A DNA stretch of 64,000 nucleotides, from positions 128,001-192,000 of the forward strand of contig JAYKHS010000028.1 in the NCBI GenBank assembly GCA_035285865.1, given 5' to 3'. The stretch is from Candidatus Sericytochromatia bacterium. Its GTDB lineage: Bacteria; Cyanobacteriota; Sericytochromatia; S15B-MN24; VGJW01. The position numbers and the translations under genes were made by a program. The notes under the pieces are model-generated. The model saw only the letters and a list, made by a program, of their open reading frames with translations, did not search any database and was not told where the DNA came from. Positions 2,587-7,271 of this stretch are shown here, one piece after another; position 1 is the stretch's first letter; each line of letters opens with the position of its first letter.

Positions 2587-5500
2587 ATGCATCTCGGAGA
2601 CGTGCTGAGCAAGAACCGCACCTTGCGCCGGGCGCACGCAGGCAAGCGCGTCTTCATTCTGGGCAACGGTCCTTCCCTGAAGGGTCAGGATCTGACCTTG
2701 TTGCGCGACGAGATCGTCATCGCCTGCAACTCCTTCTTTCATCACCCCGACCTGCGCACGGTCGCGCCGGCCTACTGGATGGCCGCGGATCCCCAGTATT
2801 GGGAGAATCCGCAAGGCACCCTGTTGCCTTTGCTACTCCGATTGAGGGAGGCAGGTGTGGCAACCCGCCTGTTCCTGCCTTCCGGGGCCCTCTCGGCTTG
2901 CCAGCAGTTAAATCCTGGACCTACTGTCTCCTTCCATCATTTCCACTATGACTACGCGGTCGAGGACCCAGTTGAGATCGATTTCTCGCGACCGGTGCCT
3001 CCGTATGGGCAGAATGTCATTTGCACGGCCATCATGCTGGCACTGCACTTGGGTGCGCATCCGATTCATCTTCTTGGCTGCGACCATACGTGGTGGGGCT
3101 ACACCGAGGACATGTACGCCCAGTCGAAACACGAGCATTTCTACGGTGGGAATGGCCCGACCATCCAGTCCTTCATGGGCTTTGCGCAGTTGCAGCAAAC
3201 CATCGTCGTTCAGCGCCGCCAGTATGAGCTCCTGCTCGCCTATGCCAGCGAGCGGGGAACGGCAATTCTGAACGCCACCGACGGTGGTTTGCTCGATGTG
3301 TTTCCGCGCGTGCGTTATGAAGACCTCTTCCCTGCCCCGCAGACCCCCGAGTTCTCTCCGGCCCGACTGGCCGCGGCTGGCGTCCGTGCGCTCGGGGTCG
3401 GAGATATCGAGGGTGCCGTTGCGCTGCTGGAGCGCGCACGAGAGTCGGGCGTGGGCCACATTGCTCGTGTTCCAGCCATAGACCTTGCACTGGCCGTGGC
3501 TCTGGCTCGCCTCGGACATGTCGAGGATGCACGTGCGCGGCTTCGGGGAGTGCTGATGGCGGATCCGCAGCTTGCGGGACGCGCGCGATGTTTGATTGCC
3601 GCTCTTGAGAGAGACGATTGGGCCGCACTGCCCGTTGCCGCAGAACTGCAGGCATGGATGTTTCCGGAGAGAGATGCCTTGCAGGTTGCCCGTCAGGTGT
3701 CCGTGCTCGAGCGCATCGGGGAGCAACGGTTTGAGGCCGGGGATGCCGAGGGTGCCCGGCAGGCCTTCGAGGAGGCCCTTGCACTGAAGCCCGAGTCGGC
3801 CTCGCTCCACAATAACTTGGCTGTTCTTTCGTGGCAGCGGGGCGAGACGGCGCGTGCGATTGATTCCTTTGCACGGGCCTTGGCTCTGGACCCGGAAGAT
3901 CCCCAGACCGTGCTCAATGCGGCGGCCGTTCATTTGGAACGGGGCGCGTTGCTGGACGCTCTGGCGGTTTGCGATGCATTCCTCGCTCGGGTGCCGAGTC
4001 ACGCCGAGGTCCGAGCGATGCGCGATGAGGTGGCAGCTCGGGTTGGGGGGGGGCAGGCCGCGCTCTTCCCGGCTGCCTCGGTCCACGGCTGTATTGTCGC
4101 CCATCTCGAGCAGGATCCCGGGAAAACGGCATTCTGGCTGAGGGAGGGCGGGCGATGGGTGGCGTGGTCCCGCGGGGACTTTCTCTCCCTGGTCTCTCGT
4201 CATGCCGCGCGCTTCTCGGCCCGATTGGAACCAGGGTCTCTGGTGCTCTTCGTGAAGCGTCTGGACGTGGATCTGCTGGCGGCCTATGTGGGGGCGATGT
4301 GGGCGGGCATGGTGCCGGCCCAGCTCAGCCCGCAGACACGAAAGACCACGCCGGAGGAGTATGCGCGCAAGTTCAAGCACATTCTCGACCTTACGGGCGC
4401 GCGGGGCATCTTCACGGATGAAGCCGACGCAGGCCTTCTTCCGCCTGGACCGGAGGTGTTCACTCCGGGAGCCGCAGGCGATGTGTCCCCGGCACCTCTG
4501 GTGGAGGGTTCTGGCGTTGCCCTCGTCCAGTTCAGTTCGGGTTCGACAGGTTTGCAGAAGGGCGTTGCGCTGACCCACGAAGGTATCCTTGCCCACATGC
4601 AGGCCTATGCCCAGGCGCTGTGCCTGGACCCTGCGGATCGTCTCGTCAGCTGGCTGCCGCTCTATCACGACATGGGCCTTGTTGCCTGTTATCTACTGCC
4701 CTTGATGGCGGGTGTTCCCTTCCTCCAGATGGACCCCTTCGACTGGATCATGCGGCCGGACCTACTGCTGGAGGCCATCGAGGGGCACCAGGCCACGCTG
4801 TGCTTCCTGCCGAACTTCGCGTATCACGTGCTGGAGCGAAAGGGCAAGGAACGGGACCTGAGCTCGGTTCGTGCGTTCGTGAATTGCTCGGAGCCTGCCC
4901 GGCCGGACACGCACGACCGCTTCCTCGCTCGCTTCCCTTCGGTGGCGCCGGGTGCCCTGACCGTCTGCTATGCGTTGGCCGAGAACACCTTCGCCGTGGC
5001 GCAGACGGTGCCCGGCGCGCCCGCGAAGCGACGGACGCTCGCGGGCAAGGAGCTGCTGTCCTGCGGGTCCGTCCTTCCGGGTACCGAGGTGCGGATCCTC
5101 GAGCCGGATGCCGAGGGGGTCGGGGAGATCGGCATCAAGGGAGCCTGTCTCTTCGCGCACTTCCTCGGGGGCGAGGCACCCATGGCGGGCGACTTCTACC
5201 GTACGGGAGACCTGGGCTTCCTCGCTCCGGATGGCGAGCTCTACGTGACGGGACGCCACAAGGATCTGATCATCTGCAACGGCAAGAACATCTACCCGCA
5301 GGATGTGGAGCATGTGGCCTCTGCCGTGCCGGGTGTCTATCCTGGCCGAGTCGTTGCGTTCGGGGTCGAGCAGGCCGAGGTCGGCAGTGAGGAACTGATT
5401 GTCGTGGTCGAGCGGGACGGTTCGGTCGCGGATCAGGCCTTGAGACTTGCCGTGCAGCGCGCCGTCGAGGATGAGGTGGGCATCCTGCCGCGGCGCGTCG

Positions 5501-5601: not shown

Positions 5602-7271
5602 TCATCGTCGGCAACAGCCATGTCTCGGTATTCTCGGGCGGCTGCCAGCTTCGAGGCCAGCCGGCCCTGCCCGTTGCGGTCCATTGGGTGGGGGCGCTCG
5701 AGATTGAGCACTTCTACCGGGACCATCCGGCCGCCGGCAAGGTCCGGAAGTTGCTGGCCTCCGAGCGGGACCGGCTCTTCCTGATGATGGGCAACCACGA
5801 CATTTTCCGTCTCTGCGTCCTTGCCGGTCGCCACGGGCGCGAGGCCGCTCTTGCCCATGTGCTGCAGCGCTACCGGGAGGTTTTCAGCGAGCTGTCGGCC
5901 GACGGCAAGCTGGTCTGGCTTGTGGGGCCGCAGCAGGCAGACAACGTGGCCATCCCCGGCATGGGGCCGCAGGAGATTCTGGCCATCGCCCGGGAGTTCG
6001 TGGATAAGCTTGGCGGGTGGTGTGAGGCCAACGGCATTCCCGTCATCGATCCGGTTCCGGGGATTTCCGGTCCCGACGGCCGTCCCGAGCGCCGGTGGCT
6101 GCAGGCCGACGGACTGCATCTCAAGGCTTCTGCCGCACGGTTCTACTTCGATGCCGTCCGCGAGCGACTGGGGTTGGAGCTCGAGACGCGGCACGAGACC
6201 AATCTTGCATTCGAACCTCTGGACGAGCATGAGTCCTTCTGTTCGCTGGTCCTGCAGGGGCTGGACCTGCCGCCGGAGCGCCGTTCCGGGACGGTCGAGG
6301 ATCTGCGCGGACGCGTCTTGGCCTTCGCTACCGCGCGGCTGGAGGATCGGGGCATCGCGTTCGATCTGGGGCTGGACACCGACTTCGTCGATGCGGGGCT
6401 GTTCGACTCGCTTGATCTGGTCGAGATGTATGCGCATGCCACGGAAGTGCTGGGTCTGGATCTTGATTTCGATGTTTCACTTCGGAAGCTCGAGACCCTG
6501 AGCAAGTTGTGCGGTTATCTGGAAGCCCGGACCGCAGCAATCGACCCAGACGAGCCGGTCTTGGCCGACTTCATCCAGTCGATGCGTGGGGAGGCCGACG
6601 ACTCGCTCACCCGCGAGGCGGATGCGCGCATTGCCCGGATGGGGGCGGCGCGCGCGGAGATGTTGCTCGAGGCCGTGACGACAGCCGGGGGCCTCGGCGT
6701 TTACGGCATGCCGCTGTGCTGGCTCGCTCTTGCCTATGATGAGCTGGGGCGCACGGCAGAGGCAGGGCATCTGCTGCGGCAGGCCGTGCAGCCAAGCCTT
6801 CGGTTTCCGGTCCCCGAGGCACGCGCCCGGGCTATCCGGACCGGTCGGGATATTGTGGGCGAGTCCGGTGTCGTGGCCGTGGCGTCAGGCGCGGCCGCCG
6901 TGCTTCCGGATGCGCGTGCCCGCAACGTGTTGGCGGACGATGCCGATCCGGCACTGCTCGAGCGATGGCTTCGCGTCTACCTCTCCAGCTTCTCTCCGGT
7001 CGACGATGTTGCCCTTCATGTGTTTGTCGACGCCGACGAACATAAAGTCGCGGCCCTTGGCCAGTGGATCCTGGACATCGCGGGAACCGCTGCGGAAGCG
7101 ATGGCCGACGTGGTCTTGCACGTGGGCCAACCCGTCGGTGCCCAGATCCAAGCTGCCGATCTCGTCCTTGGCGTGGGACCCATCGCCAGCCTTGCCCGGT
7201 CTCTCGGATGTCCCGTTCGCCCGGTTCCAACCAGTCTCTGGTTTACCGACTCGGACGAATCATCGTCCTGA
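5598..7271 (+). CDS. Fusion: SGNH/GDSL-type hydrolase or acyltransferase + acyl carrier protein + TPR-like helix + degenerate GT-like C-terminal module
   Basis: IVGNSH (Ser7), GNHD, DGLH (D171/H174); DFVDAGLFDSLDLVEM (phosphopantetheine Ser271); WLALAYDELGRTAEA; WLRVYLSSFSPVDDVALHV; ATGA-coupled to the upstream fusion. Confidence 0.75.
   Translation: MIIVGNSHVSVFSGGCQLRGQPALPVAVHWVGALEIEHFYRDHPAAGKVRKLLASERDRLFLMMGNHDIFRLCVLAGRHGREAALAHVLQRYREVFSELSADGKLVWLVGPQQADNVAIPGMGPQEILAIAREFVDKLGGWCEANGIPVIDPVPGISGPDGRPERRWLQADGLHLKASAARFYFDAVRERLGLELETRHETNLAFEPLDEHESFCSLVLQGLDLPPERRSGTVEDLRGRVLAFATARLEDRGIAFDLGLDTDFVDAGLFDSLDLVEMYAHATEVLGLDLDFDVSLRKLETLSKLCGYLEARTAAIDPDEPVLADFIQSMRGEADDSLTREADARIARMGAARAEMLLEAVTTAGGLGVYGMPLCWLALAYDELGRTAEAGHLLRQAVQPSLRFPVPEARARAIRTGRDIVGESGVVAVASGAAAVLPDARARNVLADDADPALLERWLRVYLSSFSPVDDVALHVFVDADEHKVAALGQWILDIAGTAAEAMADVVLHVGQPVGAQIQAADLVLGVGPIASLARSLGCPVRPVPTSLWFTDSDESSS

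Follow-up and report, generated by a model that had tools for sequence, protein, structure and literature searches.

Two overlapping genes in a 64,000-nucleotide stretch of a Candidatus Sericytochromatia bacterium (contig JAYKHS010000028.1, positions 128,001 to 192,000; hereafter the window) encode the parts of what is probably a cytoplasmic glycan acylation relay. Gene 1 (P0001; 2587..5601, forward strand) is an open reading frame (ORF) of 1004 amino acids that fuses a DUF115 domain, tetratricopeptide repeats (TPRs), and an adenylation domain. Gene 2 (P0002; 5598..7271, forward strand) is an open ORF of 557 amino acids that joins an SGNH domain to an acyl carrier protein (ACP) domain, a helical bundle, and an accessory module. 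Sequence and predicted structure point to a Dlt-like pathway that would operate without a membrane-bound O-acyltransferase (MBOAT), passing an acid from its AMP ester to the ACP, to the SGNH serine, and finally to a sugar, and so acylating a nonulosonate-containing protein glycan.

Gene calls and domain composition

An ATGA overlap couples gene 1 to gene 2, as the preliminary description had reported. Both frames are open over the intervals given above, and every motif quoted in that description is present in the translations. The ORF finder placed the start of gene 1 at a TTG at 2503, upstream of the ATG at 2587; orthologous DUF115 proteins start in register with the ATG. The domain composition first read from the sequence alone (DUF115, TPR, and adenylation domains in gene 1, SGNH and ACP domains in gene 2) was recovered by Pfam and AlphaFold, with PF01973 and GDSL_2 scoring below their cut-offs. 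An orthologue from another assembly (P0008, locus L048) has the same DUF115-TPR-adenylation layout at 67% identity, which makes a chimera or assembly artefact unlikely. A contig identical to the window over 1-9000 is possibly the source of the same DNA, so it does not count as independent support for the assembly. Both genes are real and conserved. A promoter and terminator scan gave no signal above shuffled sequences. Among sequencing runs containing this DNA, no RNA run was listed, and the DNA runs in which its share is small provided no usable information on habitat or strain. An anti-phage role was rejected because neither gene had a PADLOC match.

The adenylation domain resembles fatty acyl-AMP ligases

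The adenylation domain (4060..5598, forward strand) was assigned by NCBIfam, fold matches, and alignment to 3PBK, the E. coli fatty acyl-AMP ligase (FAAL). Pfam locates AMP-binding at residues 506-857 of gene 1, the P-loop FSSGSTG lies at 4531-4551, and the catalytic lysine is K986. In the AlphaFold model of gene 1 (pLDDT 85), residues 491-1000 are best matched by FAAL folds, with 7R7E (Z 46.0, root-mean-square deviation (rmsd) 2.7, 504 residues aligned) tied with 3PBK. The top NCBIfam models are FAAL-type, every one below its cut-off. The CoA-rejecting elements of E. coli FAAL are W224, M231, F279, and the helix T252-R258 (PMC8460268). In the 3PBK alignment these correspond to W689, M696, F744, and P717-R723 of gene 1. 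W689, M696, and F744 are invariant across 14 fusion proteins, P691 is likewise invariant, and residues 717-722 are helical in the model at the position of the FAAL-specific helix. The alternative-pocket residues P226 and T252 of the E. coli enzyme align with P691 and P717; P107 and T83 lie outside the alignment shown.

The FAAL-specific insertion site (4999..5058, forward strand) is cut to 20 residues in the 3PBK alignment, compared with about 36 in E. coli FAAL. The insertion is 16-20 residues long in 31 of 32 cassette rows versus 31-48 in 71 of 103 more distant relatives; in this count one cassette row is a pattern mis-hit and two rows are duplicates, and the remaining distant relatives comprise 12 with 20 or fewer residues, 3 with 26-28, and 17 unmeasured. 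A canonical FAAL was ruled out by the missing insertion. Two motifs also vary, with G(A/S)EP replaced by CSEP and YGLAE by YALAE. Four pocket positions differ from E. coli FAAL in the 3PBK alignment (Gly to Ala796, Leu to Phe802, Asn to His670, and Ile to Tyr674), a weak hint that the acid pocket may be smaller than that of the E. coli enzyme. Because the pocket-facing residues look bulkier, the loaded acid would probably be short or small and not a long fatty acid. We propose that the domain would adenylate a carboxylic acid and load it onto the phosphopantetheine arm at Ser271 of the gene 2 ACP, a pairing suggested by the fixed adjacency of the two genes and by adenylation-SGNH-ACP fusions.

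A wider FAAL-like clade (P0047, P0082, P0086, P0114, P0125, P0068) carries NCSEP and YAMAE motifs. Its members have either an ACP with other SGNH-like domains or hexapeptide acyltransferase domains as fusion partners, and their predicted architectures suggest several carrier-dependent acylation designs.

Gene 2 fuses an SGNH domain to an acyl carrier

The SGNH domain (5598..6182, forward strand) was identified by fold match and alignment and contains Ser7 (5616-5618), Gly32, Asp171, and His174, with His67 (5796-5798) at the block-III Asn position. The acyl carrier domain (6291..6533, forward strand), identified by Pfam and fold match, has its phosphopantetheine site at Ser271 (6408-6410). Pfam detects PP-binding at residues 256-308 above the cut-off and GDSL_2 at residues 46-178 (E 2e-4) below it. 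In the AlphaFold model (pLDDT 87), residues 1-194 match SGNH folds (Z 14.5, rmsd 3.2, 171 aligned), and residues 231-317 match carrier proteins (Z 10.9, rmsd 2.0, 86 aligned). An atlas search with residues 1-415 returned a best feature score of 0.82, which is a lead only.

The model places two further elements, both on the forward strand, after the carrier. The first is a helical bundle (6555..6842) with a TPR-like hairpin at its end, which accompanies SGNH-ACP in most homologues. The TPR-like helix described earlier is retained as the modeled hairpin, and Pfam detects no TPR in gene 2. The second is an alpha/beta accessory module of ~115 amino acids (6894..7247) with no Pfam match, recognized from the model and from homologues. 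It had been taken for a glycosyltransferase (GT)-like remnant and is instead a discrete module that recurs, sometimes in several copies, in other GT/TPR proteins. The structure search, which barely probed the bundle and this module, gave neither of them a fold assignment. The cytoplasmic appearance of the protein was upheld, since gene 2 has no signal peptide and strand 1 of the SGNH domain begins at residue 2. Its best 19-residue hydropathy is 1.6 and falls within a low-confidence linker.

Residue conservation was scored in 61 aligned rows that derive from 57 SGNH-ACP homologues and counted where a row has the residue. The SGNH catalytic residues are kept almost without exception (Ser7 in 50/50, Gly32 in 51/51, Asp171 in 52/53, and His174 in 53/53 rows). 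Ser271, the DSL serine of the PP-binding fold, is present in 44/51 rows. In the proposed relay, the fused SGNH domain would accept the thioester-bound acyl group on Ser7 before passing it to a sugar hydroxyl or amine. The acceptor would be an activated nonulosonate or the finished glycan. Neither an MBOAT nor a tyrosine shuttle would be needed because all of the components would lie on one side of the membrane.

The SGNH domain could in principle be a hydrolase, either a thioesterase for release or editing of the ACP-bound acid or a sugar de-O-acylase, with another enzyme performing the transfer. Its top fold matches are mostly esterases, including a sialate O-acetylesterase, and the triad persists in homologues that have lost the ACP serine or for which no adenylation gene was found. 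The fold matches also include the transferases PatB (Z 13.1) and OatA-C (Z 12.3), whose Z scores overlap those of the esterases, so the fold does not decide between the two functions. Loading and then hydrolyzing one acid would be an ATP-wasting cycle, and the cluster encodes no other acyltransferase domain. We consider a hydrolase improbable.

A family search of the host genome (G000; 2.8 Mb, 83% complete) for a phosphopantetheinyl transferase found none, and such a search misses divergent members; tblastn with the sequences of relatives located a divergent candidate at G000:C11:158306.

The adenylation and SGNH-ACP genes are the fixed core of the cassette

Related loci were retrieved with an SGNH-ACP alignment that contains no adenylation or DUF115 sequence. 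A cassette-type adenylation gene lies directly upstream of SGNH-ACP in 10/10 genome loci and 14/15 metagenome loci. When near-copies were merged at 85% SGNH identity, 15 groups besides the window remained, and the adenylation gene is directly upstream in 14 of them. DUF115 is adjacent or fused in 10/15 groups, and in the Syntrophobacteraceae group it belongs to the same cluster at a distance of ~14 kb; of the remainder, one ends at a contig end and three (L057, L058, and L062) have no DUF115 that was found. These data identify the adenylation domain and SGNH-ACP, not DUF115, as the fixed core.

The two core components also occur in a single polypeptide. P0111 and P0126 are adenylation-SGNH-ACP proteins with the same SGNH family (HHalign 97.2% and 95.8%, respectively). 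A quick, midpoint-rooted tree was built from 55 adenylation domains, with 26 distant relatives hand-picked from 103 and no characterized FAAL. In this tree a 99% branch separates the 29 cassette rows from all others, and P0111 and P0126 are nearest to the cassette clade on a very short branch. Adenylation and SGNH identities correlate across 14 groups (Spearman 0.70; 0/2000 permutations as high), which reflects joint inheritance and not binding. The activate-tether-transfer logic of the preliminary description is borne out by the upstream adenylation gene in 14/15 groups, the one-chain proteins, the CoA-rejection features, and the near-invariant catalytic residues.

The SGNH-ACP module also heads much larger proteins. 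A gene 2 profile retrieved 53 representatives at E up to 1e-30, and most share the N-terminal SGNH-ACP-helical module. Among the 28 long homologues scanned, 14 contain GT2/GT4 domains and another 9 have TPRs but no GT; the remaining 5 gave no match at E 1e-6. Module-headed proteins reach 3409 amino acids with up to five GT2/GT4 domains, and one homologue bears a WcbI capsule domain. P0006 and P0007 join the module to a GT2-TPR, and the free GT2-TPR of the window's cluster shares 57% identity with the GT2-TPR portion of the SGNH-ACP fusion in L024.

The cassette is rare and mobile. Its hosts span at least five phyla, including Cyanobacteriota, Myxococcota, Thermodesulfobacteriota, Planctomycetota, and Fibrobacterota. 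The module was found in 5/47 genomes of the window's class and 5/201 of the phylum, and searches of 3 genomes from the same genus and 7 from the same family did not find the cassette. All 3 adenylation matches at ≥59% identity among the 47 genomes of the class lie upstream of SGNH-ACP. In a reverse search of 201 Fibrobacterota genomes, a DUF115-adenylation query matched in 2, each time followed by SGNH-ACP; one of the two was already known. The GC content of the cluster is 63.1% compared to 66.9% for the genome, and 0/128 tiled 20-kb windows are as low.

The probable sugar donor and glycan product

Nonulosonate-pathway genes border most cassette loci, along with GT2/GT4/TPR proteins. Gene 1 and gene 2 are the end of a ~20-kb nonulosonate cluster, which extends some 13 kb beyond the upstream edge of the window, in agreement with the earlier view that the pair closes a sugar-biosynthesis operon. 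The cluster starts with GT2-TPR (opposite strand), LegB (above its cut-off), a nucleotidyltransferase, a radical SAM-SPASM protein, an epimerase, and NeuB. A cytidylyltransferase, a PseG-like protein, WbqC, a methyltransferase (opposite strand), and PIG-L follow. The last genes before the pair encode a second cytidylyltransferase, Gfo/Idh/MocA, DegT, a protein with a KLHP motif and no Pfam match, and a methyltransferase. Syntrophobacteraceae clusters have nearly the same gene set, and L027, L053, and L054 share the cytidylyltransferase-Gfo-DegT-methyltransferase-KLHP block. The scanned cluster genes include no acetyltransferase, ketosynthase (KS), condensation (C) domain, MBOAT, flippase, polymerase, ABC exporter, or initiating phosphotransferase. 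A family search of the 83% complete genome found no MBOAT, so the reported lack of KS, C, and MBOAT proteins holds for the cluster and, for MBOAT, in the genome searched.

The DUF115 domain of gene 1 (2587..3336, forward strand; Pfam and orthologues) is the PF01973 catalytic core common to Maf and GT42-like enzymes and is a probable CMP-nonulosonate transferase. Pfam matches PF01973 at residues 13-168 with 28.5 bits, below the cut-off of 34.6, and above the cut-off in 5/6 orthologues scanned. One study classes PF01973 as GT-A-like and links it to the GT42 enzyme CstII (bioRxiv 2020.06.03.131540). A profile search of solved structures with the domain matched neither Maf 5MU5 nor CstII at E up to 10. 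The fold lists for the whole of gene 1 are taken up by adenylation domain matches, with none shown for DUF115, and a PF01973 family search of the host genome had no match although gene 1 carries the domain, indicating that divergent members are missed. The only related solved-sequence match is a pterin pyrophosphokinase at E 0.6, which is not significant. This match and the Pfam name of PF01973, MptE-like, would fit a diphosphokinase linked only incidentally to the acylation pair. Fusions to NeuB occur in 5 of 44 longer DUF115 relatives and a fusion to a CMP-sialic acid synthetase in 1; relatives are also fused to GTs and sit in nonulosonate clusters. A diphosphokinase is thus very improbable.

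In our proposal, LegB, NeuB, the PseG-like protein, and the cytidylyltransferases of the cluster would supply the CMP-nonulosonate that DUF115 transfers. The DUF115 domain would be likelier to cap a glycan begun by GT2-TPR than to attach the sugar directly to Ser/Thr. Judging from the relatives, the product would most likely be a protein O-glycan, probably on flagellin or, failing that, on another surface protein. N-acylation of the sugar fits because the cluster has an aminotransferase and a de-N-acetylase but no other acyltransferase; O-acylation is equally open. The flagellin connection comes from two loci. L024 has the order DUF115-TPR, adenylation, SGNH-ACP-GT2-TPR, GT2-TPR, fliC, fliD, fliS, and fliT, and in L048 a GT2-TPR gene and two flagellin genes follow the cassette at a distance of about 4.5 kb. 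Flagellin_N is present in 9/9 other cassette genomes tested, a count without a background control, and was not found in G091. The host genome has four tandem flagellins on C22 (G000:C22:74160-78489) and a fifth on C16, which adjoins a GT2-TPR (G000:C16:16138-20066) orthologous (32%) to the one beside fliC in L024.

Gene 1 also contains a helical/TPR region (3358..4047, forward strand; residues about 258-487; Pfam and AlphaFold model), with Pfam TPRs at residues about 373-479. A reading that overlaps the relay makes DUF115-TPR a Maf-type enzyme that attaches the acylated nonulosonate to Ser/Thr of flagellin, with the TPRs recognizing the protein. FlmG, which carries a TPR, is listed as a modular flagellin glycosyltransferase, and many of the closest of the 44 longer DUF115 relatives are DUF115-TPR proteins. 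PF01973 is the Maf catalytic domain, and Maf proteins glycosylate flagellin (bioRxiv 2020.06.03.131540, PMC11339370). Maf consists of an N-terminal Rossmann-like domain, the central PF01973, and a C-terminal FliS/flagellin-like bundle (PMC11339370). The cassette shares the catalytic domain and the nonulosonate and flagellar context with Maf. It differs in having the central domain only, fused to TPRs and an adenylation domain. The TPR block is missing from most DUF115-adenylation fusions, and the flagellin neighbor in L024 and L048 is a separate GT2-TPR whose host orthologue lies beside flagellin on C16. Direct Maf-type attachment is possible and, on balance, rather doubtful. The earlier claim that a Maf domain attaches the sugar to protein is less well supported than the acyl relay; gene 1 has the PF01973 core, and the claim is weakened by the absent flanking domains, by the lack of DUF115 near the pair in L057 and L058, and by the GT2-TPR beside flagellin. 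Maf proper was rejected as a classification of gene 1, in which DUF115 occupies the N terminus from residue 1 and the TPRs and adenylation domain come after it. In L077 (1489-5247; protein P0010), two DUF115 domains precede the adenylation domain.

The same acyl relay could instead build a non-protein product, such as an acylated oligosaccharide, glycolipid, or surface polysaccharide made by the multi-GT proteins. The module-headed proteins with as many as five GT2/GT4 domains, the homologue with the WcbI domain, and the 13/15 groups without flagellin in the fetched flanks would suit such a product. The lack of a flippase, polymerase, ABC exporter, or initiating phosphotransferase among the scanned cluster genes, the TPR-rich GT partners, and the two loci within flagellin clusters argue against it. 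A non-protein product is unlikely.

Observations that weigh against the relay

Several findings count against acylation of a protein glycan by the proposed relay. GxND is the usual SGNH block-III motif; the cassette family has GxHD, with His67 at the oxyanion-hole Asn position in 48/52 rows, a position set by motif and not by residue-level structural alignment. The block-III Asn is described as conserved in SGNH enzymes (PMC12148441). The phosphopantetheine serine is missing from 7/51 homologous ACPs. The adenylation domain is without the FAAL insertion, and such a loss may permit acyl-CoA formation; deletion of the insertion let other FAALs form some acyl-CoA (PMC8460268). The matched divergences of adenylation and SGNH domains may arise by shared descent alone. 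L062 has no adenylation gene upstream of SGNH-ACP, G052 has FkbH and an ACP upstream of the SGNH module in place of it, and G091 (87% complete) has 6-7 module matches with no adenylation gene, DUF115, or flagellin found. In L057 and L058, neither DUF115 nor a sugar-pathway gene was detected over the 3.7 kb and 8.2 kb, respectively, that precede the pair. Flagellin occurs in the fetched flanks of only 2/15 groups, with the taxa-wide frequency of flagellin uncontrolled, and the flagellins and flagellin-type GT2-TPR of the host genome are on contigs other than that of the cassette.

The atypical homologues have features of their own. P0131, P0144, P0147, P0155, P0158, P0166, and P0170 have Thr or Lys in place of the ACP serine and keep the SGNH residues where aligned; several further homologues have a degenerate motif around the serine. 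G091 (L046 1-3507, L015, L047) carries tandem stand-alone SGNH-ACP-helical genes on three short contigs, with three in a row on one, and the L046 copies have Phe at the His67 position. In G052 (L014 3-1989, L080 1567-4388), the SGNH-module gene is immediately preceded by an FkbH-like gene and a small free ACP, and another contig encodes WbqC, PIG-L, DUF115, a methyltransferase, and an FkbH N terminus. FkbH may be an alternative loader in G052, supplying glycerate. L048 (47-1614, 8790-9527, 9670-12773) has IS3-type transposase genes flanking the cassette and a second adenylation domain, a pyridoxal phosphate-dependent decarboxylase, and a free ACP between the cassette and the flagellin GT2-TPR.

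Relation to known systems

The proposed relay has its closest parallel in Dlt D-alanylation, in which DltA is the ligase. In both, a ligase loads a phosphopantetheine carrier, an SGNH serine is assigned the final transfer to the glycan, and the parts are encoded together. The cassette differs in having no MBOAT or DltX, an SGNH domain fused to the carrier with no signal peptide, a FAAL-like ligase, and an accompanying probable nonulosonate transferase with GT2/GT4/TPR partners. It was excluded from the Dlt family because an MBOAT partner and an extracytoplasmic SGNH are absent. AlmEFG lipid A glycinylation also runs from adenylation domain to carrier to transferase without an MBOAT, as the cassette does, but its transferase is not an SGNH protein and its acceptor is lipid A. 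The remaining Dlt steps involve DltC, DltB, DltX, and DltD (PMC12148441). PatAB and OatA share the SGNH fold and Ser-Asp-His triad with the cassette. They work on the extracellular side with an acyl-tyrosine donor (PMC12148441), whereas the donor proposed here is a cytoplasmic tethered thioester and the block-III Asn position holds His.

The FAALs (E. coli FAAL 3PBK, OLS FAAL 7R7E, and FadD32) provide the best sequence and fold matches to the adenylation domain and share with it the CoA-pocket-blocking residues and helix and the pairing with an ACP. The cassette enzyme differs from them in the absent insertion, the CSEP and YALAE variants, scores below the NCBIfam cut-offs, and the lack of a polyketide synthase (PKS) or nonribosomal peptide synthetase (NRPS) downstream. 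The FAAL contexts listed in the available text of PMC11837247 are PKS/NRPS, and that of PMC12820801 mentions neither SGNH, glycosyl, nor sugar. An NRPS/PKS module was rejected because no C or KS domain follows the carrier. Flagellin glycosylation islands of Enterobacteriaceae hold Acp, LuxE, LuxC, CaiC, and FabG, and an acylated sugar was proposed (PMC4875605). The islands resemble the cassette in placing an ACP and acyl-activating enzymes within flagellin glycosylation loci; they differ in using free ACPs and Lux/Fab enzymes, and the available text mentions no SGNH-ACP fusion (PMC4875605).

The component parts are known. Within the partly covered literature that was searched we found no description of their wiring, and an earlier one is possible. 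SGNH glycan acylation was sorted in 2025 into MBOAT-SGNH and AT3-SGNH systems, both membrane-spanning via acyl-tyrosine (PMC12148441). The cassette predicts a soluble short cut in which a carrier thioester would pass its acyl group directly to the SGNH serine. It is quite possible, if somewhat short of probable, that this would be a third route of bacterial glycan acylation, in which an insertion-less FAAL-derived ligase and a carrier fused to a GxHD SGNH domain would move an acid from thioester to a nonulosonate protein glycan in the cytoplasm. The SGNH-ACP unit would then also head GT-TPR assembly lines of up to 3,400 residues in at least five phyla, perhaps with other loaders such as FkbH in G052. 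If the proposal is true, FAAL-type ligases gain a role outside PKS/NRPS starts, and acyl groups on flagellin nonulosonates, so far hinted at by gene islands only (PMC4875605), gain a mechanism. The cassette would also show that the FAAL insertion can be lost in nature while the CoA-blocking residues stay, and a soluble, donor-programmable sugar acyltransferase could serve glyco-engineering.

Neighboring genes

Directly 3' of the cluster, window positions 7391-8890 encode a proline-rich protein with LysM and C39-like peptidase domains. Positions 8915-13246 encode a DUF2442 protein, a CrtC/lipocalin-like lipoprotein, a fatty acid hydroxylase, a rhodanese, and a beta-lactamase-family serine hydrolase; no link of these genes to the cassette was seen. 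Three forward-strand genes precede gene 1 in the window. The 3' end of the DegT-family aminotransferase of the nonulosonate cluster occupies 1..413 (Pfam). The KLHP protein (398..1444; 348 amino acids) has a weak profile likeness to KpsC (GT107; E 0.045) and is a possible second ulosonate transferase. It is conserved near the cassette and lies beside DUF115 in Brocadiaceae and Syntrophobacteraceae loci. A class I SAM methyltransferase (1441..2469; Pfam) completes the set. The opposite-strand methyltransferase of the cluster (L002 15591-16502) lies within a 2-kb stretch of only 56% GC, and its homologue comes after DUF115 in Syntrophobacteraceae clusters.

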